This document shows positions 20,436-48,901 of a stretch of 48,901 nucleotides of DNA, piece after piece. The notes under the pieces are model-generated. The model was not told the origin of the DNA. It did not search any database and saw only the letters and a program-made list of their open reading frames with translations. Made by a program: the position numbers and the translations under genes. Positions within the stretch are counted from its first letter, which is position 1. Each line of letters opens with the position of its first letter. The DNA lies in IMG/VR virus record IMGVR_UViG_3300045988_155985. One strand, 5' to 3'. The stretch is from a virus. Its lineage: Duplodnaviria > Heunggongvirae > Uroviricota > Caudoviricetes.

Positions 20436-20437
20436 TT

Positions 20438-21522: not shown

Positions 21523-21839
21523 ATAATACGTTTACCATATCATCACCTTCTTACTCGATTGATTGGTCGCCCAAAACAGTTGTAGAAGAAGTTTTGCAAA
21601 ATGTCTCTACTATTATTAATACTCAGATTGGCACTGTACCATATGCCAGAAAATTAGGAGTTAATTCAAGTCTTGTTGATAGCCCCAGCCCAATTTTTAT
21701 TGCTACAGCAACACGAGAAATAATTCAAAAAATTAGTGAGTTTGAGCCTAGAGCGATTATCCATTCTGTTACTTTTGAAAGAACGGACGTTTCTGATGGT
21801 TTTATTAGGCCAAAACTTGTGATAGGAGTTAGAGAATGA
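21519..21839 (+). CDS. baseplate wedge protein, gpW/gp25-like
   Basis: 106 aa directly before gpJ-like gene. Confidence 0.65.
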   Translation: MNNTFTISSPSYSIDWSPKTVVEEVLQNVSTIINTQIGTVPYARKLGVNSSLVDSPSPIFIATATREIIQKISEFEPRAIIHSVTFERTDVSDGFIRPKLVIGVRE

Positions 21840-22960
21840 CGTTGCCGCGCGGTGGTTTGCCAGATATTACTTTCGCAGATTCTAACCCGACTGATATAAC
21901 AACTCGTTCAATCAGGGCTTTTGAGAGTATAACAGGTGAAACATTAGCACCTGCTGATCCACGTAGATTATTCATCTTATCATTGTGTGAGATTATTATA
22001 CAGCAAAGAAAAGCTATCGATTTTTCTGCAAAACAAAACCTTCTTACATATGGTGAAGGTGAATATCTCGACCATATAGGCTATCTGACGGATACGCCTA
22101 GGCTGGAAGCTCAATCTGCCTTGACTACATTTGAGTTTAATCTGTCAACAAAATTATCGGGGATATATACAATACCTGCTGGCACTCAAATTTCAACTGG
22201 AAATAGTGTTATTTTCCAAACAGATGTTTTGTTGGAAATACCAGCTGGGAAAACAGTTGGTACAGTCTCAGGATATGCTGTTATACCTGGTTTATCGGGG
22301 AATGGCTTTTTACCAGGGCAAATAAATGAGTTGGTGACTCCATTGCCGTATGTTTCCAGCGTAAGGAATCTAACAACATCTAATTCTGGTGCTGATACAG
22401 AGTCAGATGATAATTATGCTGAAAGAATAAAACTTTCGCCGGAAAAACTATCTACAGCAGGGCCGGAGGATTCTTATAAATATTGGACAAGAACAGCCAA
22501 TCAGAATATAAAAGATGTGAATGTATATACACCATCGCCCGGAACTGTAGAAATCCGTTCTTTGTTAGAGAACGGAGATATACCTTCTGATGAATTATTA
22601 GAGCAGATAAATAGCGTTCTCTCTGCAACTAATATTCGACCATTCACAGATAAAGTTCTTGTTAAGAAACCAGAGAGCATTGAATACGATATAATAATTA
22701 AATACTGGATTAACTCATCGGACAAAAACAGAACAACTTTAATTCAAAGTGAGGTTGAGAAAGCTATTGATGAGTATAAACAATGGCAACGTTCGGTTAT
22801 GGGAAGAGATATAAATCCAGATGAAATTATTCAACGTTTAAAAAATGCTGGGGCTAAAAGATTAGAAATATCAAGTCCTGTATTTACTGTGGTTGGAGAG
22901 ACGCAGGTCGCCAGAGAGAGAAATATAAATTGCCAGTATGCGGGGTTAGAAGATGGCTGA
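21836..22960 (+). CDS. baseplate protein J-like
   Basis: 374 aa; synteny. Confidence 0.75.
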   Translation: MTLPRGGLPDITFADSNPTDITTRSIRAFESITGETLAPADPRRLFILSLCEIIIQQRKAIDFSAKQNLLTYGEGEYLDHIGYLTDTPRLEAQSALTTFEFNLSTKLSGIYTIPAGTQISTGNSVIFQTDVLLEIPAGKTVGTVSGYAVIPGLSGNGFLPGQINELVTPLPYVSSVRNLTTSNSGADTESDDNYAERIKLSPEKLSTAGPEDSYKYWTRTANQNIKDVNVYTPSPGTVEIRSLLENGDIPSDELLEQINSVLSATNIRPFTDKVLVKKPESIEYDIIIKYWINSSDKNRTTLIQSEVEKAIDEYKQWQRSVMGRDINPDEIIQRLKNAGAKRLEISSPVFTVVGETQVARERNINCQYAGLEDG

Positions 22961-23534
22961 TATCTTTAATGTTAGCTTGTTGGATGTTTTACCTCCTAAC
23001 TTAGCTAGAGATCCCAACGTGATAGCTATGTCGAAAGCTATCGATGATGAACTACAAGCAATTAACAATTTAATATATAAGACAGAAATATATAGCGTTG
23101 TTGATAACCTGGATTCAGTTGTTCTCGATCATTTAGCTTGGCAATGGAATGCTGATACATGGAGGGATAGTTGGCCTGTATCGTTAAAGCGTTCTGTTTT
23201 TAAATCAATAATACGAACAAAGCGAATAAAGGGTACAAGGGCAGCGGTTGAAGATGTAGTAAATAGCTTGGGTGGAGAGGTAAACATAACAGAATGGTTT
23301 GAAACATCACCACCTGGCGAACCATATACAGCCTCAATTGTTGCTTCGATTAACTCTTTTGATGGTGCCGTTCCTTCGAAAGAGATGTTGGAAGATACGT
23401 TAAGAAGTATCAAGAGCGCAAAGTCGGCAAGAACATTATTTACATTTTCGCAAGCAGCCAATGTTTCTGGTGGTGTCGGTATTGTTGGTGCTTGTCAGCC
23501 TGTGTCTTATGTACGATTAATTGGCGAGTGCTAA
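22953..23534 (+). CDS. tail protein I-like
   Basis: 193 aa between J and tail fibre. Confidence 0.6.
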   Translation: MADIFNVSLLDVLPPNLARDPNVIAMSKAIDDELQAINNLIYKTEIYSVVDNLDSVVLDHLAWQWNADTWRDSWPVSLKRSVFKSIIRTKRIKGTRAAVEDVVNSLGGEVNITEWFETSPPGEPYTASIVASINSFDGAVPSKEMLEDTLRSIKSAKSARTLFTFSQAANVSGGVGIVGACQPVSYVRLIGEC

Positions 23535-23564
23535 TTCGCAATTTGTTAATTCAAGGAATTAAAC

Positions 23565-25799
23565 GTGAGTAAATTATTATTTACGATGACTGACGCCGGG
23601 CGTCAGGAGCTGGTTAATGCCAACAAAACAGGAACAAATAAAGTTGAGATTGTTTCTGTTGGTTTAGGTAGTAGATATTATGTCACGTCAACTTCACAAA
23701 CAAATATAACAAACGAAATAAAACGACTTACCACAATAGGTGGCAAAGTTGTTTCCCCTGATACAATTCATGTAACAGCGAAGGATGATAGTAAAGATGA
23801 GTATGTTGTCCATACAATAGGATTGTATACGAATAAGGGTACGTTGTTTGCTGTATACTCACAAGAACAAGCAATAATAAATAAAGCATCATCTACTATC
23901 GCTTTAATATCAAGTGATATAGCAATTAAAACTCTTGATACTAAAAATATTACATTTGGTGATATTGAGTTTATTAATCCTCCCGCGACCGAAACTGTTG
24001 TTGGGGTGGCAAGATTTGCTAATGAACAAGAAATTGATGCAGGTACAGATGATTCCCTTGCTGTTTCAGCAAAGCGGCTTAAGCAAGCCATTGTGAAACA
24101 TGAGCAATCACGTAATCATCCTGATGCAACTTTAACCTCAAAAGGCTTTGTTCAACTTAGCAGCGCCACCAATAGCACGTCTGAAACGCTTGCTGCGACG
24201 CCTAAGGCTGTTAAGGCAGCATATGACCTTGCTAACGCTAAATACACCGCACAGGACGCTACCACAGCGCGAAAAGGGATTGTTCAGCTCAGTAGTGCCA
24301 CCAACAGCACGTCTGAAACGCTAGCAGCAACACCAAAGGCTGTTAAGGCAGCGTATGATCTTGCGGTCGGAAAGGCTCCGTCCAATCACACGCATTCGTG
24401 GGAGCAGATAACAAATGTGCCTGTAGCTTCACTGACTGTAAGGGGAATAACTCAGCTCAGTAGTGCCACTAACAGCACGTCTGAAACGCTGGCTGCGACA
24501 CCAAAAGCTGTTAAGGCGGTAATGGATGAAACGAACAAGAAAGCGCCCTTAAACAGTCCTGCGCTGACCGGAACACCAACAACACCAACTGCGCCAAAAG
24601 GTACTAACAATACTCAGATCGCAAGCACGGCTTATGTTATGGCTGCGATCGCTGCCCTCGTGGACTCGTCGCCTGACGCACTGAATACGCTGAACGAGCT
24701 GGCTGCGGCGTTGGGCAACGACCCGAATTTTGCGACCACCATGACTAACGCGCTTGCGGGTAAGCAACCGAAAGATGCCACCCTGACGGCGCTGGCCGGG
24801 CTTGCTACTGCGGCAGACAGGTTTCCGTATTTTACGGGGAATGATGTTGCCAGTCTGGCAACCCTGACAAAAGTTGGGCGGGATATTCTTGCGAAATCGA
24901 CCGTTGCCGCCGTTATCGAATACCTCGGTTTGCAGGAAACGGTAAACAGGGCTGGTAACGCCGTGCAAAAAAATGGCGATACCTTGTCCGGTGGGCTTAC
25001 TTTTGAAAATGACTCAATCCTTGCTTGGATTCGAAATACTGACTGGGCGAAGATTGGATTTAAAAATGATGCCGATGGTGACACTGATTCATACATGTGG
25101 TTTGAAACAGGCGACAACGGCAATGAATATTTCAAATGGAGAAGCAAACAAAGCACCACAACAAAAGACCTGATGACGCTGAAATGGGATGCACTAAATA
25201 TTCTTGTTAATGCCGTCATTAATGGCAGCCTTGGAGTTGGTACGACGAATGCGTTAGGTGGTAGCTCTATTGTTCTTGGTGATAATGATACCGGATTTAA
25301 ACAGAATGGAGACGGTATTCTTGATGTTTACGCTAATAGTCAGCGAGTATTCCGCTTTCAGAATGGAGTTGCTATTGCTTTTAAAAACATTCAGGCAGGT
25401 GATAGTAAAAAATTCTCGCTATCCAGCTCCAACACCTCCACAAAGAATGTAACGTTTAATTTATGGGGTGCTTCAACCCGTCCAGTAGTTGCAGAGTTAG
25501 GCGATGAGGCAGGATGGCATTTCTATAGCCAGCGAAATACAGATAACTCGGTAATATTTTCTGTTAACGGTCAGATACAGCCCAGCAACTGGGGGAATTT
25601 TGATTCACGCTATGTAAAAGATGTTCGCCTGGGTACGCGAGTTGTTCAATTGATGGCGCGTGGTGGTCGTTATGAAAAAGCCGGACACGCAATTACCGGA
25701 TTAAGAATCATTGGTGAAGTAGATGGCGATGATGAAGCCATCTTCAGACCAATACAAAAATACATCAATGGCACATGGTATAACGTCGCACAGGTGTAA
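23565..25799 (+). CDS. tail fibre protein: constant N-terminal part plus variable C-terminal part in the currently expressed orientation
   Basis: 744 aa; GTG start after AAGGAA; internal fibre repeats; crossover site at 24923-24946 lies inside the gene. Confidence 0.8.
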   Translation: MSKLLFTMTDAGRQELVNANKTGTNKVEIVSVGLGSRYYVTSTSQTNITNEIKRLTTIGGKVVSPDTIHVTAKDDSKDEYVVHTIGLYTNKGTLFAVYSQEQAIINKASSTIALISSDIAIKTLDTKNITFGDIEFINPPATETVVGVARFANEQEIDAGTDDSLAVSAKRLKQAIVKHEQSRNHPDATLTSKGFVQLSSATNSTSETLAATPKAVKAAYDLANAKYTAQDATTARKGIVQLSSATNSTSETLAATPKAVKAAYDLAVGKAPSNHTHSWEQITNVPVASLTVRGITQLSSATNSTSETLAATPKAVKAVMDETNKKAPLNSPALTGTPTTPTAPKGTNNTQIASTAYVMAAIAALVDSSPDALNTLNELAAALGNDPNFATTMTNALAGKQPKDATLTALAGLATAADRFPYFTGNDVASLATLTKVGRDILAKSTVAAVIEYLGLQETVNRAGNAVQKNGDTLSGGLTFENDSILAWIRNTDWAKIGFKNDADGDTDSYMWFETGDNGNEYFKWRSKQSTTTKDLMTLKWDALNILVNAVINGSLGVGTTNALGGSSIVLGDNDTGFKQNGDGILDVYANSQRVFRFQNGVAIAFKNIQAGDSKKFSLSSSNTSTKNVTFNLWGASTRPVVAELGDEAGWHFYSQRNTDNSVIFSVNGQIQPSNWGNFDSRYVKDVRLGTRVVQLMARGGRYEKAGHAITGLRIIGEVDGDDEAIFRPIQKYINGTWYNVAQV
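24145..24530 (+). repeat. three imperfect direct repeats of about 78 bp inside the tail fibre gene
   Basis: Repeated peptide QLSSATNSTSETLAATPKAVKA; copies at about 24151, 24283 and 24451. Confidence 0.6.
24923..24946. repeat. left inverted repeat / recombination site of the invertible segment
   Basis: CCTCGGTTTGCAGGAAACGGTAAA; exact reverse complement at 27888-27911; core resembles gix/cix sites as recalled. Confidence 0.7.
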
Positions 25800-25802
25800 A
25801 TT

Positions 25803-26336
25803 ATGCAGCATTTAAAAAATATTAAGTCAGGAAATCCAAAAACAAAAGAGCAATATCAGCTAACAAAGAATTTTGATGTTATCTGGTTATGGTCCGAAGA
25901 CGGTAAAAACTGGTATGAAGAACAAAAGAACTTTCAGGAAAACACAATAAAGCTAGCTTACACAGCAGAGGGAATTATTGTTGCTATTGATAAGGATGTA
26001 TCGGCAATTAATCCAGAAGGTTTAAGCGTTGTTGAGTTGCCTGATATAACGGCCAATAGACGGGCTGATATTTCGGGTAACTGGATGTTCAAAGATGGCG
26101 CGGTGATAAAGCGAACTTATACCGAGGAGGAACAGAGGCAGCAGGCAGAGAATGAAAAGCAAAGCCTGTTGCAACTTGTCAGGGATAAAACCCAGCTATG
26201 GGACTCACAGCTACGGCTGGGTATCATTTCCGACGAGAATAAACTAAAATTAACCGAGTGGATGCTCTATGCGCAGAAAGTCGAATCTACAGACACCTCC
26301 AGCCTGCCAGTAACGTTTCCCGAACAACCAGAATGA
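25803..26336 (+). CDS. tail fibre assembly protein (expressed orientation)
   Basis: 177 aa; N-terminus [14 protein letters not shown] shared with the minus-strand paralog. Confidence 0.75.
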
Positions 26337-26364
26337 GACAAGGCCCGCTATCGGGCCTTAATTT

Positions 26365-26892
26365 TTATTCAGGCTTTTGTGGCCATTCAGGATTTGCCGT
26401 ATCCACACGGCTGACCAGAACACTGTAGCGTTCCCATGATTCCAGTCGTGCGCGTTCCTCATCCGTCGCCATATTCAGCCTGACAGCGCGCTCCAGTGGC
26501 TGAATAACGCTTTCTGCTTCGGAAAGTAACGCGGCCTTTTGTGATTCGGCCTGTTGTTGCTGTTCGTCAGCCGTATAAATCCGTTTAACCACAGCTCCGT
26601 CCTTAAACATCCACTTACCGGAATCATCGGCCCGACGATTGGTTGTTATATCGGGAACCTCAACGACGCTAAAACCTTCAGGGTTAAGCGTGGATGCATC
26701 TTTGGTGATGGCGACAATAATATTATTTTCATCGTAAACAATCTTTATGGTGTCTGGCTGAAAGTTTTTCACTTCCTCATACCAGTTTTTTCCGTCCTCA
26801 GAGTAAAGCCAGATAACTCCGTGTTTCTTTGTTAACTCATACTGTTCCAGTGTTTTAGCGTTACCCGCTTTTATGTTCTTTAAGTGCATCAT
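26365..26892 (-). CDS. alternative tail fibre assembly protein (silent orientation)
   Basis: 175 aa; paralogous N-terminus [14 protein letters not shown]; convergent to 25803-26336. Confidence 0.75.
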
Positions 26893-26893
26893 A

Positions 26894-27904
26894 TTAAACG
26901 CTCGCTACATTATACCAGGTGCCATTTATATACTTTTGAACGGGTCTGTAATAAACGCCCGCTATATTATCGGCAGAATTGGACCCTGTATCCTGAACAT
27001 TAATACCAGTCAATACATGACCTGACGGGCACTGGAAATTCCATGTTTGCCAGTTGTTCACGCCATAATATTGCTGTGAACCAAGTCGAACATCTTTCAC
27101 ATAACGGGAATCAAAGTTACCGTAATCTGAGGGATTAACACGCCCTGTAATATTTATGGTTTTATTACTTTGAATACTGCCGGAGACAAAGCGCATAACA
27201 TGGACGTTATTAGCATAAACATCCAGATACCCGTCGCCATTTTGTTTAAATCCCGTGTCATTATCACCCAAAACAATCGAGTTACCGCCAAGAGCACTGG
27301 ATGTACCGATGCCCAGTGCACCATTCAATTGACCTCCAGATAATGACAACGCCCCAACATCAGCAGCAGTCGGTTTAATGTGCGAACTGTAAATTACATA
27401 TACAGTTCCATCTGTCAGACCTGTTGGTTTATTCGCTGTATAAGTTGGTGATGTATGAATCGTTACGCTGGCGTTACTGGTATAATCCCACTGAATATTA
27501 ACACCTGTGGCGTAATTACCTATTTCAACATAAACATCATAGGTATCACCTGATGTATTCACCCATGCAAAATTAGTAAATCCAACCGATGTCCGTCGCC
27601 ATAACGCACCAGTAAGACCTTTTGGATTTCCATTTCCCGCACGAAGAACAAGTTCAGATATACCAGCCTGCATAGGGGAGTTAACATTATATCCAGCACC
27701 ACCAATCAGGCTTATGTAAACCACGGAACTGGCTTGTGGCATTGTTACAGTTGCCAGTTTGAACCATCCAGCACCACCACTAAAAGACATGGTTGTTGAA
27801 TTTGTTGTGCCGATATTACGCAGGAATAGTTTTTTATCGGGAATATCTGCGCCGTTCTGGTTTTTCTGTAATGCGCCAGAAGCCTGATTTACCGTTTCCT
27901 GCAA
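26894..27904 (-). CDS. alternative tail fibre C-terminal variable region (promoterless until inversion)
   Basis: Track start is TTG; encodes LQETVNQ which continues the fibre frame across the crossover site; shares [17 protein letters not shown] and C-terminal [11 protein letters not shown] with the plus-strand fibre. Confidence 0.7.
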
Positions 27905-27985: not shown

Positions 27986-28540
27986 ATGCAATATGGTTAT
28001 GCGAGGGTGTCAACTTTTGACCAGAATTTGGAATTACAACTGGAGGCGCTCAGGAGTTTAGGATGTGACCGGATTTTTGAAGATAAAATATCCGGTGCTA
28101 AATCAAAACGACCAGGACTTGATAAGCTACTTAAGGTGTTACGGCCGGGCGATACGGTTATTGTCTGGAAGCTGGACCGAATGGGGCGTTCTCTGATTCA
28201 TCTTGTTGATTTACTTAACCATTTTTTATCAAACAACATTGAGTTTATTTCGATTACGGAAGGGATAAAAATTAGCACTTCAATTGGCCGCTTTGCCTAC
28301 ACGATGCTGAGTGCAGTCGCAGAGATGGAGCGGGAAAATATGATTGAAAGAACGCGTGCAGGATTGGCGGTGGCAAGGGCTAACGGCAGGATAGGAGGAC
28401 GCCGCTCAAAGCTGGCACCAGAGCAATGGGAACAGATCGGAAGGCTTATTGCGAATGGTGTTTCACGTAAGCGGATAGCGATTATCTTCGATGTTACCTT
28501 ATCCACGCTTTACCGCAGGTTTCCGGCTGGGAATCATTGA
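27986..28540 (+). CDS. serine-recombinase DNA invertase (Hin/Gin/Cin family)
   Basis: N-terminal GYARVSTFDQ with catalytic Ser, central resolvase motifs, C-terminal HTH; adjacent to the invertible segment. Confidence 0.9.
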   Translation: MQYGYARVSTFDQNLELQLEALRSLGCDRIFEDKISGAKSKRPGLDKLLKVLRPGDTVIVWKLDRMGRSLIHLVDLLNHFLSNNIEFISITEGIKISTSIGRFAYTMLSAVAEMERENMIERTRAGLAVARANGRIGGRRSKLAPEQWEQIGRLIANGVSRKRIAIIFDVTLSTLYRRFPAGNH

Positions 28541-28685: not shown

Positions 28686-28729
28686 TATGATTGTGGGTGT
28701 CTGGTTGGAAAGTGACCAGATATGGAAAC

Positions 28730-28850
28730 AAAAAGCCCGCAGATAAATCTGCGGGCTTCTTGCGACATCCACGGAAAACCAACAATTAACCATGGGCGCC
28801 TCGACAACTCCCATTATACGTTGGTTTTCCGTGGACGCAAGAGCGAACAT
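28730..28850 (-). ncRNA. candidate CopA-like antisense RNA against the repA leader
   Basis: Minus-strand terminator (hairpin 28735-28756 followed by T-run on the minus strand) and a 15-bp-stem hairpin at 28769-28834 just upstream of the repA ATG. Confidence 0.3.
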
Positions 28851-29699
28851 ATGGATAGACCAATGCCGTCTCTACGTTCAGCTTACGTTTGTAATTTGTC
28901 GCCGGAGTTCCAGCCTCCAAAGCACCATACGCACAAGCTGCCGCTGGTGTTATCTGATGCTTTACAGCGCATTAATGGGCGTGATCTTACGTGTGAGGTT
29001 GCGTTCTACGTTAATCAACCGTCAGAGCGGAAGCGCCGGATAAACGAGCATCGTCGTCGGGCGATTAATGCTGTGATCGCTGCGATTTTGCACCATGTAA
29101 ACATCATTTCTAAGCGGGTTCTGGCTAGTGCTGAGGCGTTGGCTGATTTTTGCGGCCTGTCTACCGTATCCGAAGCTGGGAACAAGTCTATAACGCGCTG
29201 TACAAGGGCGTTGTCGCAACTGAAAGCGTTAGGTTTTATTGATTATGAACGTCGCTGGGATCGGGTGAATAAACAGTATTGGCCAGCGAAAATAGAGATT
29301 CGTGATCAACTGCTGGAAACCGTTGGTATTACTGAACAAGCATGGAGACGTGCGGTTAGCCAGAAACTTAATTACTTCAATGCGAAGAATAGCGAACGGC
29401 TTAAAAAAGCGATAACGGAGGCTGATTATAAGCGTATTGTTATTCAGGAGCAGATGGAGAATGTATGGCGTCAGAGGAAGACGGCCAGAGAGATAAAGGC
29501 AAAACAGAAAGCAGCGGAGAGAGCTGCGCGTCTTGTTCGGGAAAAGGGAGAGGCCGAACTTCGTCATCAAATCACTAGAGAGGTTAGCCAGGAATTTGCT
29601 GATGGCATGTATCCTGGAGCTGACCTTGCATATTTACGATCCCTCGTTGAGCAGCGTTATAACAGGTTAAGAAAGACCTGGAAATCACTCCAACATTAA
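28851..29699 (+). CDS. repA: plasmid replication initiator RepA, IncFII RepA1-like
   Basis: Segment GNKSITRCTRALSQLKALGFIDY matches recalled RepA1 GKLSITRATRALTFLSELGLITY; basic C-terminal half; ATG 28851 preferred over track start 28722 because the leader is structured. Confidence 0.7.
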   Translation: MDRPMPSLRSAYVCNLSPEFQPPKHHTHKLPLVLSDALQRINGRDLTCEVAFYVNQPSERKRRINEHRRRAINAVIAAILHHVNIISKRVLASAEALADFCGLSTVSEAGNKSITRCTRALSQLKALGFIDYERRWDRVNKQYWPAKIEIRDQLLETVGITEQAWRRAVSQKLNYFNAKNSERLKKAITEADYKRIVIQEQMENVWRQRKTAREIKAKQKAAERAARLVREKGEAELRHQITREVSQEFADGMYPGADLAYLRSLVEQRYNRLRKTWKSLQH

Positions 29700-30330
29700 C
29701 CCACCTGAATGATGAATCCGGTTTTACCGGAGGATTATCTACGTCGCAATAAAATATCTGTTCAAAAAACAATCTAAATTAATTTTCTCTAAACCTGAAC
29801 ACAGCGTAAATATCGCCTTTACAGGCATCAGCTAATCAAGTTATCCACAGTTTTGATATGTATATGCAAATGGTTTTTTATAATAGATGCACTAAACAAA
29901 TAAATGCAAAATCACTTTCTTTTATTAAAACTTTCTTTATTTAACTTACGCAGGCTTTGCCTGTGAATATGTTCGCCCTTGCAGCGAGCTAAAGCTCGCG
30001 CCGGTTCGAATCGCTACGCTCAAATATACCTCCTCCGGCACTTGCCGGAGGCATGGAGCAGCCTGATCATCCTTTTCGAAACGGCACGTTTCGAACTATA
30101 CAAAATCAATTTATATAAGGCCGAAACAAGGCCTACGGCCGGGCTTTGCAGGAGGAAGGGGCGAGCCTTATCAATAAACGTCGATAAATACGCACACAGT
30201 AGCCATCAGAACGCGATAAAACGTAAGAAACATCATTTCCTATTAGACATAGAAAACTTGTCTTATACGCAATGTAGTAAATTTCTATTGCCACATAGGA
30301 AAAGATTTCCTACCATCGTAGATATAATAA
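29700..30330. promoter_or_regulatory. candidate vegetative origin region downstream of repA
   Basis: Perfect DnaA box TTATCCACA at 29841-29849; AT-rich stretch; perfect palindromes at 29985-29998, 30032-30051 and 30075-30095. Confidence 0.4.
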
Positions 30331-31152: not shown

Positions 31153-31161
31153 GGATTGAGC

Positions 31162-31509
31162 ATGTGGACGGTACTTTTTAGCCAGCGATTTGACGACTGG
31201 CTAAATGAGCAAGAAGACGCTCTTCAGGAAAAGGTTTTGGCTGATTTGAAAAAGCTACAGGTTTACGGACCTGAGTTACCCAGGCCATATGCCGATACCG
31301 TAAAAGGTTCTCGGTACAAAAATATGAAAGAGCTTCGCGTTCAGTTTTCTGGCCGTCCGATAAGAGCCTTTTATGCGTTCGATCCGATTCGCCGGGCCAT
31401 CGTTCTTTGTGCAGGAGACAAAAGTAACGATAAACGGTTTTATGAAAAACTGGTGCGTATAGCTGAGGATGAGTTTGCAGCACATCTGAACACACTGGAG
31501 AGCAAGTAA
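31162..31509 (+). CDS. RelE/ParE-superfamily toxin, HigB-like
   Basis: About 115 aa; toxin-first order followed by HTH antitoxin; ATG 31162 after AGGA (track start 31156 is TTG). Confidence 0.6.
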   Translation: MWTVLFSQRFDDWLNEQEDALQEKVLADLKKLQVYGPELPRPYADTVKGSRYKNMKELRVQFSGRPIRAFYAFDPIRRAIVLCAGDKSNDKRFYEKLVRIAEDEFAAHLNTLESK

Positions 31510-31808
31510 TGAGAACATTAGATGAGGTGATTGCCAGCCGTTCACCTGAAAGCCAGGCGCGAATTAAAGAAATGGCAGATGAGATGATTCTTGAGGTCGG
31601 CTTGCAGATGATGCGTGAAGAACTCCAGTTATCACAAAAACAGGTTGCTGAGGCGATGGGTATAAGCCAGCCAGCAGTAACAAAGCTGGAGCAGCGCGGA
31701 AATGATTTAAAGCTGGCGACATTAAAGCGTTACGTTGAAGCTATGGGAGGCAAATTAAGCCTGGATGTTGAGCTTCCTACAGGAAAGCGAGTAGCGTTCC
31801 ATGTCTAA
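31509..31808 (+). CDS. HTH Xre-family antitoxin, HigA-like
   Basis: HTH LSQKQVAEAMGISQPAVTKLE; start overlaps toxin stop. Confidence 0.65.
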   Translation: MRTLDEVIASRSPESQARIKEMADEMILEVGLQMMREELQLSQKQVAEAMGISQPAVTKLEQRGNDLKLATLKRYVEAMGGKLSLDVELPTGKRVAFHV

Positions 31809-32280: not shown

Positions 32281-32393
32281 TATTTATATAATTATAGATT
32301 TATATAAAAAGTGCTTTACAGGTGGGAAAAAATTTCCTAAGGTTATACCCGAAACCGAGCGATACCCGCCCTGGTTAAACCGGAGATAACCCG
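32281..32393 (+). promoter_or_regulatory. promoter-operator-leader cassette, copy B
   Basis: AT-rich repeat 32281-32310; -35-like TTTACA 32315-32320; 17-bp spacer with inverted repeat GGAAA-AAA-TTTCC; -10-like TAAGGT 32338-32343; conserved 50-nt leader. Confidence 0.5.
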
Positions 32394-32774
32394 ATGAGCA
32401 TGATTAAAATCCGCAAAAACGCTTTCCTTAAAATTCAAACTATCCTGGCTGGTTCTGTTGGCGTGATTTGCCGTTCTTCCTCAAGCCGCATCGATGACGG
32501 CTACGATGATGAGTATCGTGTGTCCTCATGCGATGAGGCTTTAACCTGGCTGAAGGAGAATCAGGAACGTGCCCAGGTATATCTGGAAACAGAGAACGGC
32601 AATCAGATGCTGCGTATTAGCGGTCGTTATGGATTTGAAACTACATTCATGGCCTATTTTAATCAGGCTTACTTTGACAAGGAGTTGGCTTGGTACACTG
32701 ATCGCATGAGCAAAAGCGAGCCAGCCCCGATTACACCGCCGAACAATAAACCATTTTTATTCCTCGTTAAGTAA
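32394..32774 (+). CDS. hypothetical protein, 126 aa, first gene of cassette B
   Basis: ORF track; ATG within conserved leader context. Confidence 0.5.
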   Translation: MSMIKIRKNAFLKIQTILAGSVGVICRSSSSRIDDGYDDEYRVSSCDEALTWLKENQERAQVYLETENGNQMLRISGRYGFETTFMAYFNQAYFDKELAWYTDRMSKSEPAPITPPNNKPFLFLVK

Positions 32775-33919: not shown

Positions 33920-35065
33920 TTATGGTCTGCTTTTCTGTGCCAGCTTATCAGCACATGTTTTTATCAGATCCTGTAGTGTCCTGGCTGGCAGGTTTGCATC
34001 CAGAACGCTGAGTATGCTGTTGTGATCAGCCTGGTCGACTACTTTGCCTGTCGGTGGTAGTAGCTTGAGCTGAGGATTCAGGTTTTCGTCAAAGCTGATA
34101 AGTGCTCTGGCGTTTCTGAGCAGATCAAGAAGTAAGGCTGATATCACATTTTCCTGAGTCATTGCTGGCAGATTTAGCGCCGCTTTAGTTTTCCCTGTTG
34201 CCTTGTCAAACTCCTTGATTAGTTCCTTCCTGTAGTTCGGTTCCGTTAATAGCCGATTATGCTCTGTTGCCGCGCGGATAATCGTTTTTTCCTGGTATAG
34301 TCGTTTAGCCAGATCACGCTCGTACTGTGTTTTTAACACGCTGCTGATAGCGTTAAAGGCTTCAATGTAGGCCAGCTTGATATCTTTCACGCCTGGACCG
34401 TCGATGCTCTCCATGAGCAAGGTAAATCCGTCTTTTGTCATGCGATAGATTGTTATTTCGCGGTCGCTTCCTTCCAGCGGTCGTTGTTCTTTAAAAAAGT
34501 GACGCGCCGCAGCTGTGCGAGGAATGCGTAACGCATCGATGGCCATAACGATGGAATTGTTTGTGGTGCTGAATGCCTGGGCAACATCGGCTGAGGTTGT
34601 GAGTGGCTCGTTATTGCACACCTTAATGTAAAACATCGGTTTGGCGTTGAGCGTATCGACAACCTCACGAGCATTGTTTGGCGAGACGGTTACGGTCGCG
34701 GCCGTTTGCGCGTTCTGGTTGAAATAGCAGTCTTCCAGTTTTTCGAACACATCCCAAGCCTGATCGGTTTCAAGCATTTTGGCGTGACGTGCAGCCCCGC
34801 GTTCTGTCCAGAGGATGAGGGAGCGGACTTTAGGTGAAACTGGATTTTGTGAGTAGTTTAAAGCTACCCGCAATTCTTTAAGGTCATTACCAACAACTTT
34901 GAAAAAGTGTTTCCCTTCAACGAAACGTACTTTGTTCTCATGATGATTCTGGCGAATACGCACCGGCTCAGTGCCGTAAAGCTGTGCCAGTAACTCGGTA
35001 GTAATGACAGGGATTTGGTTATGCAGGATAGGCTGTAGGGTGTTAACGGTCGGAAGCGTTTTCAT
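33920..35065 (-). CDS. antirepressor (Ant-like) with ORF6N/Rha-like domains
   Basis: 381 aa; N-terminal VITTELLAQLYG and central ADVAQAFS segments resemble antirepressor/Rha-family domains. Confidence 0.7.
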   Translation of the reverse strand: MKTLPTVNTLQPILHNQIPVITTELLAQLYGTEPVRIRQNHHENKVRFVEGKHFFKVVGNDLKELRVALNYSQNPVSPKVRSLILWTERGAARHAKMLETDQAWDVFEKLEDCYFNQNAQTAATVTVSPNNAREVVDTLNAKPMFYIKVCNNEPLTTSADVAQAFSTTNNSIVMAIDALRIPRTAAARHFFKEQRPLEGSDREITIYRMTKDGFTLLMESIDGPGVKDIKLAYIEAFNAISSVLKTQYERDLAKRLYQEKTIIRAATEHNRLLTEPNYRKELIKEFDKATGKTKAALNLPAMTQENVISALLLDLLRNARALISFDENLNPQLKLLPPTGKVVDQADHNSILSVLDANLPARTLQDLIKTCADKLAQKSRP

Positions 35066-35253
35066 TTTGTACCTCCCATAACTACTTTGGTTACGAGGGC
35101 GATTTTTGCGTCAGAAACAGCGTTATCGTTGCTGGCGATGCGCATAGCTTCTCGCTCAATGATTTCAGCCAGGCGGAATTTATCGGCGTATGAGGCTTTC
35201 TTGAGAAGGATCTTTACGAGGTTGACGTAATAGTCATGGGGTAGGTTTGTCAT
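35062..35253 (-). CDS. small protein translationally coupled to ant (icd-like position)
   Basis: 63 aa; stop TGA overlaps ant ATG (ATGA). Confidence 0.45.
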   Translation of the reverse strand: MTNLPHDYYVNLVKILLKKASYADKFRLAEIIEREAMRIASNDNAVSDAKIALVTKVVMGGTK

Positions 35254-35418
35254 TGTGATGATTCCCTTAAAGGTTAAGGATACTCACCACCGTCAGGTTC
35301 CAATCATTGGGTGGTGAGACGTGCAGGGTTGGAACTACCGGACACAATGACGAACCGGCGAGTCTTACGACTCCCCCGCACGCCCCACCATAATTTGGGT
35401 GTAGCAGTGCTTTACGCA

Positions 35419-35440
35419 TAAAAAAACCGCTAACGCGGTA
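35419..35440 (-). terminator. minus-strand rho-independent terminator
   Basis: On the minus strand: hairpin ACCGCGTTAGCGGT followed by TTTTTTT. Confidence 0.5.
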
Positions 35441-35585
35441 TGCGCCATTGTGTCTACGGGGTTCCAATCCCGACCGTAGATTTTGCTACGGCTCGGAAAG
35501 TGTCCACCAATGGCGCATTCATGTCAATACGGCGGGATTTTAACAGAGACAACCACATAGCGTGGGTTTATTGGTAGGCAGAAAC

Positions 35586-36372: not shown

Positions 36373-36627
36373 TTACTTCTGGTTGTATTGAGCCTTGAGT
36401 AACTCAAAAGACTTTGTCAGCACTTCTTTCAATGACATATCCATTGAGCTGGCGAACGTTTTGTACTCGCGTTTAAATTCAGGGTCGACGTTAAACGCCA
36501 TTTGTGCCCCACCTGATTTGGTTCTGGCTGGCGTTTCAGTCGGGTCGAAAACCTGCGGTTGTTCGATCGATGGCGGTACGCCTTTGCTGTTCTTCTTTGG
36601 TGGTTTTGATGGTGCGGCCATGTGCAT
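36373..36627 (-). CDS. small partition/centromere-binding protein, ParG-like (ribbon-helix-helix)
   Basis: 84 aa downstream of parA; basic flexible N-terminus and C-terminal RHH-like segment. Confidence 0.55.
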   Translation of the reverse strand: MHMAAPSKPPKKNSKGVPPSIEQPQVFDPTETPARTKSGGAQMAFNVDPEFKREYKTFASSMDMSLKEVLTKSFELLKAQYNQK

Positions 36628-36664: not shown

Positions 36665-37318
36665 TTACGCGGCAGTAGTCAGAGCCTCAAGCTGGTTGAT
36701 AATCCCCTGAATAACGTCGTCTGCCTTTTTGCGTGGCGCAACGTATGAGCACTCAATGAGGCTTAAGCCCTTATCCTGAGCTTTGCTCAGAGCTGGCTTG
36801 TGGGGAATGTACTTATCGACAACAAAGTATGGCGTATTAGCCAGGTACTCTTGGGCTTCAATATAGTCAGCTTCGTTTTCAGCCGCGCCGGAAAACACCA
36901 TGCAAATTTTCTTGATTGGTACACCCTTTTTAACGATGCCGTGAGCTGTGTTAACGGTGGTTTCCAGGTCATCGGTAGAGAATCTGGTTGGTAAAATAAC
37001 CATATCCAGAAATTCAGAGAGCTTCGGTACTGATTCAGATGCGTAGGCACCGCCATCGACGATAACCAGGTCGTATACTTCTGATTCGATGATTTTCTGG
37101 ACTTGTGATGGTGTGCCGCACGGCTGCGCCGCGATTGCTGGTTCGATATTGTTGGCCATTCTGCGTTGTACCCAACGCGTTACCGTTCCGTTAAGCACAT
37201 CCATATCGATCAGGCATACATTCCAGCCGGCCTTTGCATAAGCAACTGCTAAAGCACGGGCAATTGTTGATTTGGTTACGCCGCCTTTTCCGTTGAAAAT
37301 ACCTACAGAGATAGTCAT
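36665..37318 (-). CDS. parA: partition ATPase, small ParA (ParF-like, type Ib)
   Basis: Deviant Walker A GKGGVTKST; about 217 aa; ATG 37318 (track start 37333). Confidence 0.85.
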   Translation of the reverse strand: MTISVGIFNGKGGVTKSTIARALAVAYAKAGWNVCLIDMDVLNGTVTRWVQRRMANNIEPAIAAQPCGTPSQVQKIIESEVYDLVIVDGGAYASESVPKLSEFLDMVILPTRFSTDDLETTVNTAHGIVKKGVPIKKICMVFSGAAENEADYIEAQEYLANTPYFVVDKYIPHKPALSKAQDKGLSLIECSYVAPRKKADDVIQGIINQLEALTTAA

Positions 37319-37341
37319 TTGTCGAGACTCCATGTGTTTGG

Positions 37342-37935: not shown

Positions 37936-38592
37936 TCATAACCAGTTGACAACACTAACTACGCGGCCCAGAACTTTATAACGCTTAAATTCCTCGTTAT
38001 TCAGATGCTTAGTGTTCATTTCAGCATCCCTTTCGGTTGACAGCATAACAGCATTGTCACCCGGTATGACTCTACAGTGCCTCAAAACAACCAGGCCATT
38101 TCTGTCTTCAAGGGCATAGATCCCCTCATGAATCTCTGTATCGTCTGTATTAATCAGGACTTGGGAGCCAGGGGATATTGTTGGTGACATTAACTCATCG
38201 TTGCTCTGGAGAACTGACAGAGACGATGAGTTGATGTTCTTGCTTCGTAGAATCTCCTGTTCTATCGCCAGCACTGGCTTTTCTCCGGCGTGCGATGCTA
38301 TGTCATTTTTTATAGCTACAAGCCCAGGAATAACAGGAGCGTTAGTATTCTGGGGTGGGAACGGGTTATCTGTTAAGCACGCGATATAAGGCGCTGATGC
38401 TTTCAGGGCGTGCGCGATTTTCTTGATGGCAGGTATAGATGGTTGTCTTAATCCGGCCTCATAGTTCTGCAAGGTGCTTAAGCCTATTCCAGTGACTTGC
38501 TGGAGATCTCCGGCAGTCATGCCGGATTGTTTCCGTAGAGTCTGAATGCGCAGACCTATTTCTTTCTTGATGTTCTCGTCGTTGCTTTTCAT
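37936..38592 (-). CDS. prophage repressor, cI/LexA-like (N-terminal HTH, C-terminal S24 peptidase-like)
   Basis: HTH GMTAGDLQQVTGIGLSTLQNYE; C-terminal segment with Ser and Lys candidates; divergent from cro-like gene. Confidence 0.8.
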   Translation of the reverse strand: MKSNDENIKKEIGLRIQTLRKQSGMTAGDLQQVTGIGLSTLQNYEAGLRQPSIPAIKKIAHALKASAPYIACLTDNPFPPQNTNAPVIPGLVAIKNDIASHAGEKPVLAIEQEILRSKNINSSSLSVLQSNDELMSPTISPGSQVLINTDDTEIHEGIYALEDRNGLVVLRHCRVIPGDNAVMLSTERDAEMNTKHLNNEEFKRYKVLGRVVSVVNWL

Positions 38593-41166: not shown

Positions 41167-41285
41167 AAATCTATAAATATATAATTATAGATTTATATAA
41201 AAAGTGCTTTACAGGTGGGAAAAAATTTCCTAAGGTTATACCCGAAACCGAGCGATACCCGCCCTGGTTAAACCGGAGAAATCTG
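41167..41285 (+). promoter_or_regulatory. promoter-operator-leader cassette, copy C
   Basis: AT-rich repeat 41167-41203; TTTACA 41208-41213; spacer with GGAAA-AAA-TTTCC; TAAGGT 41231-41236; conserved leader. Confidence 0.5.
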
Positions 41286-42353
41286 ATGAATAAACAAGAA
41301 ATTATTTCTGACTGGATCAACAACCCTAACAGCCTGTTAAGCACTGATACTGGCTACCTATTACGCCATGTTAATGGTCGTATGGTCAAAAGCGATGAGC
41401 ACGAAACCTTTTTCTTTGTTGAAGACGATGGGCGCATCTATGAGGATGGTTACTCTTATGAAGCCCAAACTGGTTGTATCCCTGCGGAGCTGGTGGACGT
41501 AACAGAAGATCTGCGCAAAGCATGGCTTGAACAGCAGCAGCGCGGAGATGATTACGTAAACACCTATCAGGAACGCCAGAACGCGCGTCTTGCCCGATAT
41601 ATTGCTCGTGCAGAAAAAGCCAGAAAAGAAGGTGCGGTAGCGCATAAGCGAGCGCATGACCTGTTGGATGTGATCCCGTTAGGCCAGCCGATTTTAGTTG
41701 ACCATTATAGCGCGAAAGGCCATCGCCGCCGTTTGTCTAAAGCTGATGCGTTATTAAGAAAAGCGTTTGTTGAATGCGAAAGTAAAGCATCACACTACGA
41801 GAGCAAAGCCGCAGGTGTTGGTCGTAATGGAATTTCGTCTGATGATCCTGATGCGCTATTTAAGTTGCTTCGTAAGCTGCAAGGCTGCATGAAGTCACAC
41901 GTCAAAATGAAGGCCGCAAATAAGGCCATTCGCAAATACAAAAAAGACCAATTACAGCAGCTTTCTGCATTAATCGATCTCAGGTTTACAGAAAGCGAAG
42001 CCAAAGAGTTACTGGCCGGAGATTTCTGTGGGCGCATCGGATTCCCTTCATACGCACTGAGCAACAATAACGCCGAAATCAAACGACTACAGAGCCGTAT
42101 TAAGGAGCTTGAATCGGTCAAGTCTGTAACAGGAGCACAGCGCGAAGAATACGACGGCTTTTCTATGGAGATAGATCCAGAGGATAACCGCATCCTGTTT
42201 TATTTCCCTGGCAAACCAGAGGCAAACATTCGTTCGCTGCTTAAATCACGCGCCTTTAAGTGGAGTCCAACCCGTAATGCATGGGTTCGCAAGATTACTC
42301 CAAACGCCCTGGCTGATGCCCGATATCTAAAAGAATCGCTATTGAAAGCCTGA
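41286..42353 (+). CDS. hypothetical protein, 355 aa, first gene of cassette C
   Basis: ORF track; basic helical C-terminal half; no catalytic motif recognised. Confidence 0.5.
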   Translation: MNKQEIISDWINNPNSLLSTDTGYLLRHVNGRMVKSDEHETFFFVEDDGRIYEDGYSYEAQTGCIPAELVDVTEDLRKAWLEQQQRGDDYVNTYQERQNARLARYIARAEKARKEGAVAHKRAHDLLDVIPLGQPILVDHYSAKGHRRRLSKADALLRKAFVECESKASHYESKAAGVGRNGISSDDPDALFKLLRKLQGCMKSHVKMKAANKAIRKYKKDQLQQLSALIDLRFTESEAKELLAGDFCGRIGFPSYALSNNNAEIKRLQSRIKELESVKSVTGAQREEYDGFSMEIDPEDNRILFYFPGKPEANIRSLLKSRAFKWSPTRNAWVRKITPNALADARYLKESLLKA

Positions 42354-46037: not shown

Positions 46038-46433
46038 ATGTCAGCAGAACCAATTTCCGGTACGGCCGTTGCTGCTGGTGGCCTGATGGGTGCCAGCGTT
46101 TTTGGTATTGCAACTGGTATTGATTACGGCGTTGTATTCGGGGCATTTGCTGGCGCTGTTTTCTATGTTGCTACAGCGGTGAATATTAGCCGTCTCAAGC
46201 TGATTGGCTATTTCTTTACATCGTTCATTGTTGGAGTGATTGGAGCGCCGTTAGTTGGCTCATTTCTTGCCAAATGGACCAGCTACAACGATCGTCCTCT
46301 TGATGCACTTGGTGCGGTTATTGTGGCTGCATTGACAATTAAAATCCTCACGTTCGTAAACAGCCAGGATCTCGGTAGCATCTTTGGAATGCTTTCCCGC
46401 TTACGTGGAGGGGGTTCAAATGGTAAGCAGTGA
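46038..46433 (+). CDS. holin-like membrane protein
   Basis: 131 aa with several hydrophobic helices; first gene of the lysis cassette. Confidence 0.6.
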   Translation: MSAEPISGTAVAAGGLMGASVFGIATGIDYGVVFGAFAGAVFYVATAVNISRLKLIGYFFTSFIVGVIGAPLVGSFLAKWTSYNDRPLDALGAVIVAALTIKILTFVNSQDLGSIFGMLSRLRGGGSNGKQ

Positions 46434-46716
46434 CCCGTCAGCACTGATTAATGCGGTGCTTTGCACAGTAATAGTAATGGCGCTGATGCTTTATCGACGG
46501 AAAGACTCCAGGCATCGTCCATTTGTTTCCTTTCTGGCTTATATCTACGTCATTGTATACGCCAATGTTCCCTTCCGTTATGTGTTCGGTCTTTATCAAG
46601 AATCCCACTGGCTGGTGGTTATTGGAAATCTGATTATCTGCATCGTTGTTCTGTATTTCAGGGGCAATCTGGCGCGGATAGTTGACGCATTAGGGTTTAA
46701 TCATGACCAAAGATGA
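46420..46716 (+). CDS. second membrane protein of the lysis cassette
   Basis: Three hydrophobic helices; ATG 46420 after GGAGGGGG overlaps holin 3' end (track start 46384 is TTG). Confidence 0.45.
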   Translation: MVSSDPSALINAVLCTVIVMALMLYRRKDSRHRPFVSFLAYIYVIVYANVPFRYVFGLYQESHWLVVIGNLIICIVVLYFRGNLARIVDALGFNHDQR

Positions 46717-47245
46717 GATTTTTAACAGCGTTCTTGGAAAAGAGGGCGGCTATGTGGATCACCCTGACGACAAGGGAGGCCCAACAAAGTGGGGCATTAC
46801 TCAGAACACTGCCCGTGCTCATGGATATCGTGGCGATATGCGCGATTTAACCCGCGAACAGGCACTGGAAATCCTTGAGGCTGATTACTGGTACGGACCA
46901 CGCTTTGATCAGGTGGCCGCATTATCCTCTGATATTGCCGCAGAGCTGTGTGACACGGGGGTGAACATGGGGCCAACAGTGGCGTCAAAAATGCTTCAAC
47001 GCTGGCTGAATGTGTTCAACCTGCGCGGGAAGCTGTATCCCGATTTGGATGCAGACGGACGAATCGGTCCACGTACCATTAATGCGCTACGTGCTTATCT
47101 TGGGAATCGGGGAAAAGACGGCGAACGGGTGATGCTGACGTCGCTGAACTGTACGCAGGGCGAACGCTATCTGGAGCTGGCGGAGAAGCGCGAGGCTAAT
47201 GAGTCGTTTGTCTACGGCTGGATGAAAGAGCGAGTGGTGGTATGA
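46703..47245 (+). CDS. endolysin, GH108-like N-terminal domain with peptidoglycan-binding C-terminal domain
   Basis: N-terminal GKEGGYVDHPDDKGGPTKWGIT resembles GH108 signature. Confidence 0.75.
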   Translation: MTKDEIFNSVLGKEGGYVDHPDDKGGPTKWGITQNTARAHGYRGDMRDLTREQALEILEADYWYGPRFDQVAALSSDIAAELCDTGVNMGPTVASKMLQRWLNVFNLRGKLYPDLDADGRIGPRTINALRAYLGNRGKDGERVMLTSLNCTQGERYLELAEKREANESFVYGWMKERVVV

Positions 47246-48197: not shown

Positions 48198-48785
48198 ATG
48201 GAGGCAATTGCATTGTTTAATCTGATTTATGCAGATCCCCCCTGGGAATACAAAGACAAGTGTAAGGATGGGAATCGTGGCGCTGGTTTTAAGTATCCAA
48301 CGATGAAAGCTGAGGATATTGCTCGTATTCCTGTCTGGCAGCTTGCTAATCCTGAATCGTGTTTGTTGGCCATGTGGTGGGTTCCGACTCAGCCAGAAGA
48401 AGCGTTGCTGGTGGTGAAAGCATGGGGATTCAGGCTGATGACCATGAAGGGCTTCACATGGAACAAATGTGGTAGCCGACAGCCAGACAAGCTGGTGATG
48501 GGGATGGGGCATATGACTCGTGCAAACAGTGAAGATTGCTTGTTTGCGGTAAAAGGCAAACTGCCGACCCGCCTTGATGCGGGGATTATTCAGTCGTTTA
48601 CATCGCCTCGTCTGGAGCATTCTCGGAAGCCTGATGTGGTCCGTGACAAGCTGGTAAAGCTGTTAGGCGATGTTCCTCGTATTGAGCTGTTTGCTCGCGG
48701 TGATTTACCTGATGGCTGGCATGGCTGGGGCAACCAGTGCAACGGAGGTATCCAGTTGCATGATGCTCTCTGGCAAATGTCATAG
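48198..48785 (+). CDS. DNA N6-adenine methyltransferase, MT-A70 family
   Basis: LIYADPPWEY (DPPW motif); 195 aa. Confidence 0.75.
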   Translation: MEAIALFNLIYADPPWEYKDKCKDGNRGAGFKYPTMKAEDIARIPVWQLANPESCLLAMWWVPTQPEEALLVVKAWGFRLMTMKGFTWNKCGSRQPDKLVMGMGHMTRANSEDCLFAVKGKLPTRLDAGIIQSFTSPRLEHSRKPDVVRDKLVKLLGDVPRIELFARGDLPDGWHGWGNQCNGGIQLHDALWQMS

Positions 48786-48901
48786 AATTATATAATTATA
48801 GATTTATATAAAAAATGCTTTACAGGTGGGAAAAAATTTCCTAAGGTTATACCCGAAACCGAGCGATACCCGCCCTGGTTAAACCGGAGATAACCCGATG
48901 A
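48786..48901 (+). promoter_or_regulatory. promoter-operator-leader cassette, copy D (same physical copy as window start on the circle)
   Basis: AT-rich repeat 48786-48815; TTTACA 48819-48824; spacer with GGAAA-AAA-TTTCC; TAAGGT 48842-48847; leader continues as 1-55. Confidence 0.5.

Follow-up and report, generated by a model that had tools for sequence, protein, structure and literature searches.

P1 is the classic plasmid prophage, with pac headful packaging, a RepA protein with iterons, and ParA/ParB partition. N15 is also a plasmid prophage. The element analysed here, a stretch of 48,901 nt that is called the window and is considered at its full length, can be compared with both. Like P1, it has the features of an extrachromosomal myovirus prophage with C4 RNA/antirepressor immunity and a tail-fibre segment switched by an invertase. 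In contrast to P1, it is half the size, and it encodes an IncFII-like RepA, a small ParA, and a terminase of the gpA (cos) type. Because the replicon, the partition system and the cos-type packaging differ, the element is placed outside the P1 group. No P1 record was found among the best matches listed for the window. The arrangement of a gpA-type terminase, a portal and a ClpP-like protease is shared with N15 and lambda, whereas the contractile tail, the lack of a protelomerase and the circular relatives set the element outside the N15/lambda group as well.

The RepA protein belongs to the same family as that of the classical IncFII plasmids (R1/R100), whereas their CopA-type antisense RNA was not found: over the whole window, ryfA, C4, isrK and a tRNA were the only families above the Rfam gathering thresholds. 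A small Walker-type ParA ATPase is encoded, as in the type Ib ParF/ParG system.

The closest relatives are E. coli plasmids and Yersinia phages. The plasmid of E. coli ATCC 25922 (NZ_CP009073.1, 48,488 bp, circular) aligns to 91% of the window at ~98% nucleotide identity, and ~70 similar plasmids of 47-52 kb, such as JE86-ST05_p3 and CP172338.1, are present in complete E. coli genomes. These plasmids and the window are alike in gene order, three promoter-plus-leader cassettes, RepA, ParA, CI, the C4/antirepressor module and the myovirus genes, and they differ by mosaic swaps at 43.1-45.7 kb, in small early genes and at the tip of the tail fibre. The family is common: 72 of 5,426 complete E. 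coli genomes have it, and one of the carriers is the quality-control strain ATCC 25922. Of the Yersinia phages, vB_YpM_39 and vB_YpM_41 match 93% of the window at ~98% identity. Together with vB_YpM_44 they are deposited as phage genomes of 49.0-49.1 kb (OR545053-OR545055), and the records give Y. pestis EV76-CN as the host. This host entry suggests that the family makes infectious particles. The literature search returned no paper describing vB_YpM_39, vB_YpM_41 or vB_YpM_44.

Since near-identical complete circular plasmids and phage genomes are public, the substance of the finding is not new: the window holds one entire copy of an E. coli phage-plasmid family that had been sequenced before, a correct but ordinary identification. 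No paper naming the 48.8-kb E. coli family as a phage-plasmid group was found in the literature search, and the accessions of the relatives are absent from the supplements searched. In the literature, the pSLy3, pKpn and pCAV groups belong or relate to the SSU5 supercommunity. The eight phage-plasmid groups curated by Pfeifer et al. 2021 (PMC7969092), with pSLy3, pKpn and pMT1 in the SSU5 supergroup, seem to lack the family of the window. The features of the window are listed in Table 1.

Table 1. Features of the 48,901-nt window, in order of position, with the observations on which each assignment rests.
Feature	Position	Strand	Basis or remark
Terminal overlap, first copy	1..55	+	Operon 5' leader; GGAG 40-43, start codon 52-54
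First gene, 73-aa fusion	52..273	+	245-bp deletion relative to ATCC 25922, JE86 and vB_YpM_39 (alignment)
Intrinsic-terminator-like hairpin, strong	295..318	+	Directly 3' of the first gene; 10-bp stem, 7 GC pairs, T run
Conserved non-coding region, candidate cos	4588..5144	.	Upstream of the packaging genes
Terminase large subunit, lambda gpA type	6292..8148	+	Pfam GpA_ATPase 7.1e-76, GpA_nuclease 1.9e-84
Myovirus head, tail and tail-fibre genes	8396..27904	+	PGAP names in the 98-99% identical relative L002
Invertible fibre segment	inverted repeats 24919-24973 and 27861-27915		Repeat analysis
Hin/Cin-type serine DNA invertase, no integrase	27986..28540	+	Pfam Resolvase 9.7e-45 and HTH_7
RepA, plasmid replication initiator	28722..29699	+	Pfam IncFII_repA 1.3e-43; NCBIfam RepA_IncFII_LM 231.5 bits against a cut-off of 70
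Candidate replication origin	29700..30000	.	63-67% AT; perfect DnaA box TTATCCACA at 29841; putative function
RelE/ParE(HigB)-type toxin gene and adjacent HTH gene	31156..31808	+	Annotation of relatives; HTH gene a putative antitoxin
Promoter-plus-leader cassette, copy 1	32284..32397	+	86-bp exact repeat in common with the junction copy
P1 immI-like module	33920..35492	-	isrK-like RNA, C4 RNA, 63-aa ORF, ORF6N/Rha antirepressor
ORF6N/Rha antirepressor	33920-35065	-	Pfam ORF6N, Phage_pRha
C4 antisense RNA	35307-35395	-	Rfam C4, 77.8 bits
isrK-like RNA	35420-35492	-	Rfam isrK, 67.7 bits
84-aa ORF downstream of parA, candidate centromere-binding protein	36373..36627	-	Position
Small ParA-type partition ATPase, 222 aa, ParA/MinD type	36665..37333	-	Pfam CbiA, ParA, MipZ
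CI-like repressor	37936..38592	-	Pfam HTH_3 4.6e-11, weak Peptidase_S24 match
Promoter-plus-leader cassette, copy 2	41177..41290	+	Upstream of the DUF3560 gene
Lysis genes: two holins and GH108 endolysin	46038..47245	+	Annotation of relatives, precomputed Pfam matches
MT-A70 DNA methyltransferase gene	48198..48785	+	Last gene before the junction
Promoter-plus-leader cassette, copy 3	48788..48901	+	AT-rich 8-bp array, TTTACA-17-TAAGGT, ~45-nt leader
Terminal overlap, redundant second copy	48847..48901	+	Same as 1-55; to be trimmed

Packaging, virion and lysis genes

A full set of packaging, virion and lysis genes is present. The gpA-type terminase was recognized by Pfam, and the rest are named in colinear relatives with 98-99% identity. 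The long virion module includes genes for the portal, ClpP-like protease, capsid, sheath, tube, tape measure, baseplate and fibres.

The conserved non-coding region upstream of the packaging genes is intact, with 97-99.8% identity, in 72 of the 72 carrier E. coli genomes, and the other 5,354 gave no match to it. Both vB_YpM_39 and vB_YpM_41 have been deposited with their first base at approximately position 4731 of the window, 414 nt upstream of the cluster leading into the terminase genes. These record starts and the gpA-type terminase make the region the best candidate for cos.

A tRNA-like hairpin at ~4731 was considered as the core of an attachment site and rejected, as the region is unmatched in E. 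coli genomes without the element.

The terminal overlap and closure of the circle

The first 55 bp of the window (TTATACCCGAAACCGAGCGATACCCGCCCTGGTTAAACCGGAGATAACCCGATGA) are identical to its last 55 bp, and the prefix/suffix comparison revealed no longer prefix equal to a suffix. This identity had been reported in the initial annotation and is exact over its whole length. The probability of a 55-bp end match in random sequence is ~4^-55, a figure to be read with the reservation that random sequence is the wrong null here. The 55-mer forms the 3' terminal part of the cassette, a promoter-plus-leader element of 114 nt with three copies in the window. A third exact copy of the 55-mer is at 32343-32397, and a copy with 85% identity is at 41236-41290. 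The junction copy and the copy at 32343 share an exact repeat of 86 bp, composed of 31 bp to the left of base 1 and 55 bp to the right, and they part ways exactly at base 56. The window begins and ends on the last 55-mer of this dispersed repeat.

Because the 55-mer sits in a three-copy repeat, the overlap alone is no proof of closure. The initial annotation had read closure from the overlap; the closure is upheld by the independent records described below, while the overlap is not sufficient evidence for it. More generally, a terminal overlap inside a multi-copy repeat does not prove circularity, and it should be checked against relatives or reads.

The position of the overlap can be explained by the assembly. 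Since base 55 ends the 86-bp repeat (32312-32397), the 55-mer is a branching vertex in a de Bruijn graph with k = 55. A path closing on itself in such a graph would leave an overlap of 55 bp, and the cut would be fixed by the graph at base 55. The overlap is thus interpreted as an assembler k-mer artefact (SPAdes type, k = 55) and not as a biological terminal repeat. This interpretation is supported by an independent ENA metagenome scaffold (L017, 47,085 bp), which starts at the identical base and whose first 80 nt are those of the window, and by several IMG/VR fragments of relatives that end within a few dozen bases of the promoter-leader element. The prefix equals the suffix exactly and the join is confirmed in independent records, as is expected of a k-mer overlap, with k probably 55. 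The repeat does not behave as a true direct terminal repeat of virion DNA. It is an operon leader with an exact internal copy, it is interior in the virion-derived records, and the terminase is of the cos type.

The closure was compared with outside sequences using a 4-kb artificial join, in which 46847-48846 is followed by 1-2000. This junction query was covered over at least 80% of its length in the interior of 56 circular PLSDB plasmids. PLSDB records with any match to the junction numbered 118, and 116 of them were typed as non-mobilizable. The query was likewise at least 80% covered in 67 complete E. coli genomes, where the records among the matches listed (25) are all 31-57 kb. In a base-level alignment of the window with NZ_CP009073.1, JE86-ST05_p3 and vB_YpM_39, colinearity extends through 48846/1 and 55/56 and as far as base 75. 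The joined junction was also found inside the three virion-isolated Yersinia phage genomes, and it is read through by four metagenome/virome contigs (L004-L007; one from IMG/VR and three from metagenomes), which have the same deletion allele in the first gene as the window. These contigs are 97.5-98.8% identical to the window and therefore come from other strains.

The contiguity of the junction in plasmids, phages and independent contigs argues that the closure is correct and that the unit length is 48,846 bp. Very probably, then, the window is the complete contig of a circular phage-plasmid of 48,846 bp, closed by a k-mer overlap, and the circularly closed replicon of that approximate size proposed at the outset is supported by all of these records. 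Joining the ends would reunite the cassette (48788-48846 and 1-55) with the first gene at 52-273, as in the complete relatives. For bookkeeping, the last 55 bases should be trimmed to give the 48,846-bp unit, and the record should be filed as a non-integrating phage-plasmid, not as a linear phage or a prophage fragment.

It is improbable, although consistent with several observations, that the sequenced DNA came from virions or lytic replication and that the circle is a product of cohesive ends that were annealed or ligated, of concatemers or of terminal redundancy. The genome would then be complete, and plasmid carriage in the sample would be without evidence. A circular assembly is likewise expected of any phage that is circularly permuted or has cos ends, the terminase here is of the gpA (cos) type, and the close relatives from Yersinia are deposited as free phages with Y. 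pestis EV76-CN as the host. However, the overlap lies in an operon leader ~4.7 kb from the candidate cos region, and the family is plasmid-borne in 71-72 of 5,426 complete E. coli genomes. An origin from virion DNA would in any case be compatible with circularity and with a phage-plasmid nature.

A false or chimeric closure induced by the repeats has a still smaller chance of being correct. Two circles (~32.3 and 16.5 kb), or arcs of two co-resident strains, would have been joined at the repeats. The 55-mer is exact at 32343-32397, the 86-bp repeat is longer than 55 so that the graph alone allows two circles, and assemblies of relatives often break at the promoter-leader element. The sequence beyond the overlap speaks against such a joining: in every relative aligned, the gene that comes after the cassette beside MT-A70 is the one to which bases 56-75 belong. 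The order and size also agree with ~70 complete circular plasmids and with three phage genomes, and the junction is spanned by four independent contigs. A chimera of near-identical strains is conceivable, if unlikely.

The single circle of 48,846 bp places a short fusion gene directly after the junction. The window is without 245 bp after base 75, a stretch which in the aligned relatives encodes an 89-aa first gene. The deletion joins 8 codons of this 89-aa gene to the second gene, resulting in ORF 52-273. It is not an assembly scar, because the deletion point is 20 bases past the overlap. An exact 60-mer across the deletion was found inside one IMG/VR contig and three metagenome contigs. The exact 73-aa product was found in 272 index blocks, including the interior of vB_YpM_41, which holds the identical gene, and the complete plasmid CP172338.1, which has the same 245-bp deletion allele. 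The gene was never found on a contig >200 kb, and the longest contig is in the 20-50 kb bin for 172 of the 272 blocks.

Some relatives are found on records above one unit in length, such as the 81,265-bp contig OFCH01000023.1 and a 68,543-bp contig in IMG/VR. A 94,204-bp record of ATCC 25922 carries two copies of the element and is read as an assembly dimer. Records of 31-32 kb were considered as deletions between cassette copies. This was rejected, as pCREC-544_3 (32,182 bp) spans ~3868-35253 and is not bounded by cassettes; NZ_CP035831.1, examined as another candidate deletion product, is a partial linear record.

Replication, maintenance and the extrachromosomal state

RepA and ParA, both named in the initial annotation, were confirmed by the domain matches in Table 1. 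RepA scored 78.6 bits against the TIGR03474 incFII_RepA equivalog, whose cut-off is 446.9. ParA exceeded the Pfam cut-offs and scored 78.5 bits against NCBIfam ParA_partition, below its cut-off of 180.

The name ParG given earlier to the 84-aa ORF could not be sustained. This ORF showed no match in Pfam, NCBIfam or PDB sequences, and its best Foldseek E-value was 7.8. Its AF2 model includes a disordered N-terminal tail followed by two confident helices. The position and this predicted architecture are compatible with a ribbon-helix-helix partner similar to ParG. The RelE/ParE-type toxin showed a weak NCBIfam match, with 18.9 bits against a cut-off of 62.85.

The Pfam scan of 20 ORFs, the longer window-specific ones among them, detected no tyrosine integrase, and none is named in the PGAP annotation of the 98%-identical relatives. 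The window-specific ORFs are all <240 aa, and the longer ones have no recombinase domain. The only recombinase found is the Hin-type serine invertase. No protelomerase was found, and its absence is concluded from the ORFs >500 aa, which are only those of the terminase, portal, tape measure and tail fibre. An attachment site in the candidate cos region is disfavoured, because this region has no match in E. coli genomes lacking the element. The GC content averages 44.5% and stays within 37-49% in all 2-kb windows. The E. coli chromosome typically has a GC content of ~51%, and neither end of the window holds a stretch at such a chromosome-like level.

The distribution in complete genomes points in the same direction. 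In the 71 complete E. coli genomes with repA, all 76 places of the gene are on plasmids. The head module (5145-13000) was found in 72 of 5,426 complete E. coli genomes at 85 places, of which 84 are on plasmids and one was counted as chromosome. The latter is most likely NZ_CP035831.1, a 31-kb linear record which is titled 'extrachromosomal' and is without repA. A separate circular replicon in the host is seen for the relatives, in which repA is always on plasmids and the circular records are 47-52 kb. The initial proposal of an extrachromosomal prophage with neither an integrase nor an attachment site agrees with the RepA and ParA matches, with the integrase search, with the absence of the candidate cos region from genomes lacking the element, and with the exclusive location of repA on plasmids. 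The sequence evidence supports a temperate phage that would be kept as a plasmid, for which infectious particles are suggested by the relatives only.

Part of the early-gene module adjoins a tyrosine integrase on an unrelated short contig (L025), which suggests that early-gene modules are exchanged with integrating phages. The idea that the window is an integrated prophage, or a linear plasmid prophage like that of N15, with its ends falling in the repeats by chance can practically be set aside, given that the search revealed no tyrosine integrase and every ORF large enough for a protelomerase has another assignment, that host-like sequence is absent from both ends, that the relatives are circular plasmids with every repA place in complete E. 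coli genomes on a plasmid, and that the candidate cos region is unmatched in E. coli genomes without the element.

For the circular phage-plasmid, a life cycle can be proposed from the gene families. Virion DNA would be of unit length, with cohesive ends cut by the gpA-type terminase, probably near 4.7-5.1 kb, and it would circularize after injection. During lysogeny, replication would start from the IncFII-like RepA and the downstream origin with its DnaA box and AT-rich sequence. The small ParA and a centromere-binding partner may be responsible for partition, and the RelE/ParE-type toxin gene may penalize loss. Silencing would depend on the CI-like repressor and the P1-like C4 RNA/antirepressor module. 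The proposed cycle includes no integration step.

Promoter-plus-leader cassettes, repeat arrays and immunity

In all three copies of the cassette, the first ORF downstream starts at the ATG of the leader. At the junction, the ATG at 52-54 opens ORF 52-273, and GGAG at 40-43 is located 8 nt upstream. A strict sigma-70 scan of 48500-48901 detected no promoter. By eye, TTTACA (48819-48824) and TAAGGT (48842-48847) are separated by a 17-nt spacer, and the -10 element is weak. The claim that a cassette promoter at the window end is placed to drive the first gene therefore holds for the geometry, and not for the promoter itself, for which the scan was empty. TTTACA-17-TAAGGT is a plausible promoter of the cassette, judging from its sequence. 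Among 50,697 phage records, the cassette was found only in three Yersinia phages, with three copies each.

The RNA fold of the cassette leader is modest (-9.6 kcal/mol, z = -2.4), and the Rfam search revealed no family at this leader. The C4 antisense RNA was considered as a regulator targeting the cassette leader and rejected, as the duplex energy was no better than for shuffled leaders (z = +1.3).

AT-rich arrays with a period of 8 bp (units TTATATAA/TTATAGAT) were observed at eight loci, with 23 pattern matches against 0.01 expected. Each of the three cassettes has one of these arrays directly upstream. Three more border parA and the 84-aa gene, at 36634-36664, 37342-37372 and 37415-37445, and may correspond to the short tandem repeats that a type Ib centromere has next to the par genes, with the reservation that the other five of the eight loci are elsewhere. 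In the divergent region beside the CI-like gene (38593-38765), palindromic sites of the form ACCAC..GTGGT are found. Because the CI divergent region uses these different palindromes, the 8-bp arrays are probably not CI operators.

Strong terminators were observed at 295-318 and 1169-1190, past the putative junction promoter, and at 45991-46018, before the holin gene.

It is conceivable, though doubtful, that the arrays and the cassettes constitute one regulon of a single small protein, possibly the 84-aa ribbon-helix-helix-like candidate partner of ParA, which would then be both a centromere binder and a global switch of the rightward operons. The omega protein of pSM19035 and KorB of RK2 are models for such a dual centromere binder and regulator. 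If this were true, the single-protein regulon would couple plasmid partition directly to the silencing of phage genes, and the three terminators would add a promoter-specific antitermination step.

A ryfA-like RNA was also observed at 35853-36150 (Rfam, 138 bits), and the window includes a tRNA with a CAU anticodon.

Promoter cassettes, AT-rich arrays and the first gene after the junction

Three rightward operons in the window are each headed by a near-identical copy of a promoter-plus-leader cassette, which comprises a putative promoter, a 5' leader of ~45 nt, a Shine-Dalgarno site and a start codon. In a set of 50,697 phage records, only the three related Yersinia phages carry the cassette, with three copies each. 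The folding of the leader is modest only (z = -2.4), and the leader was rejected as a target of the C4 RNA. Strong intrinsic-terminator-like hairpins are all located within the cassette-initiated operons, two of them <1.2 kb from the promoter spanning the junction and one directly before the holin gene. Their placement hints that the late genes are perhaps under antitermination control.

AT-rich arrays with an 8-bp period, composed of the units TTATATAA/TTATAGAT, were recognized at eight intergenic loci; 23 matches to the unit pattern were observed in the window, against 0.01 expected. Three of the eight arrays lie immediately upstream of the cassettes; three more border parA and the downstream gene encoding 84 aa. 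The array units are unlike the palindromes of the CI divergent region, and thus the arrays may be candidate sites for a protein other than CI, possibly a partner of ParA.

The first gene downstream of the junction is a fusion generated by a 245-bp deletion, whose deletion point falls between bases 75 and 76. The deletion takes out an 89-aa first gene that is present in the E. coli plasmids of ATCC 25922 and JE86 and in the Yersinia phage vB_YpM_39. The deletion allele is widespread, being found in 272 index blocks as well as in vB_YpM_41 and the plasmid CP172338.1.

Features of the phage-plasmid, with positions in the window
Feature	Position	Strand or detail
8-bp-period arrays	32283-32307, 36634-36664, 37342-37372, 37415-37445, 41169-41199, 42385-42417, 47644-47675, 48780-48811	
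Cassette copies	32284-32397, 41177-41290, 48788-48901/1-55	rightward
Terminator-like hairpins	295-318, 1169-1190, 45991-46018	+
First gene after junction	52-273	
ParB-N/Srx-domain proteins	1855-5735	207 aa, 459 aa, 196 aa
Invertible tail-fibre segment	24919-27915	bounded by 55-nt inverted repeats
Hin/Cin-type invertase	27986-28540	
immI-like immunity module	33920-35492	-
ryfA-like RNA	35853-36150	+
CI-like repressor	37936-38592	-
232-aa early protein	43259-43957	

Immunity, RNAs and tail-fibre switching

The immunity module, which consists of an isrK-like RNA, a C4 antisense RNA, a 63-aa ORF and an ORF6N/Rha antirepressor, resembles immI of P1, and a separate CI-like repressor is present besides it. 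The ryfA-like RNA matches the ryfA family over its full length (138 bits) and contains a hydrophobic 40-codon reading frame, MKKYYMCIFIVVTGALF..., which could encode a type I toxin aiding plasmid maintenance. In the invertible segment, the genes for alternative fibre tips and for fibre assembly are placed on opposite strands, and the segment adjoins the invertase gene, an arrangement shared with P1 and Mu. It is therefore likely that the host range of the phage is switchable.

The stretch from the junction to the terminase genes encodes three ParB-N/Srx-domain proteins, of which the 459-aa one is fused to a methyltransferase domain. They are phage-side genes, not a partition ParB.

Relatives of different size or context

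The circular plasmid pCREC-544_3 (NZ_CP024829.1; 32,182 bp) is a smaller relative that keeps approximately 3868-35253 of the window. It has lost CI and parA together with the early operons and the lysis genes, and the annotation splits both its terminase gene and its baseplate J gene into two ORFs. It has the appearance of a defective form that depends on RepA alone for its maintenance. Some relatives occur on records that exceed one genome unit. NZ_CP032086.1 from ATCC 25922 (94,204 bp) includes two copies of the element and looks like an assembly dimer; OFCH01000023.1 (81,265 bp) and IMGVR_UViG_3300029841_000009 (68,543 bp) could be concatemers, cointegrates or insertion-carrying elements.

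An exact copy of the 232-aa early protein is also encoded by a short, unrelated contig (Logan SRR22424541_50257), beside a gene for a tyrosine integrase, which indicates that integrating phages have this early-gene module too.
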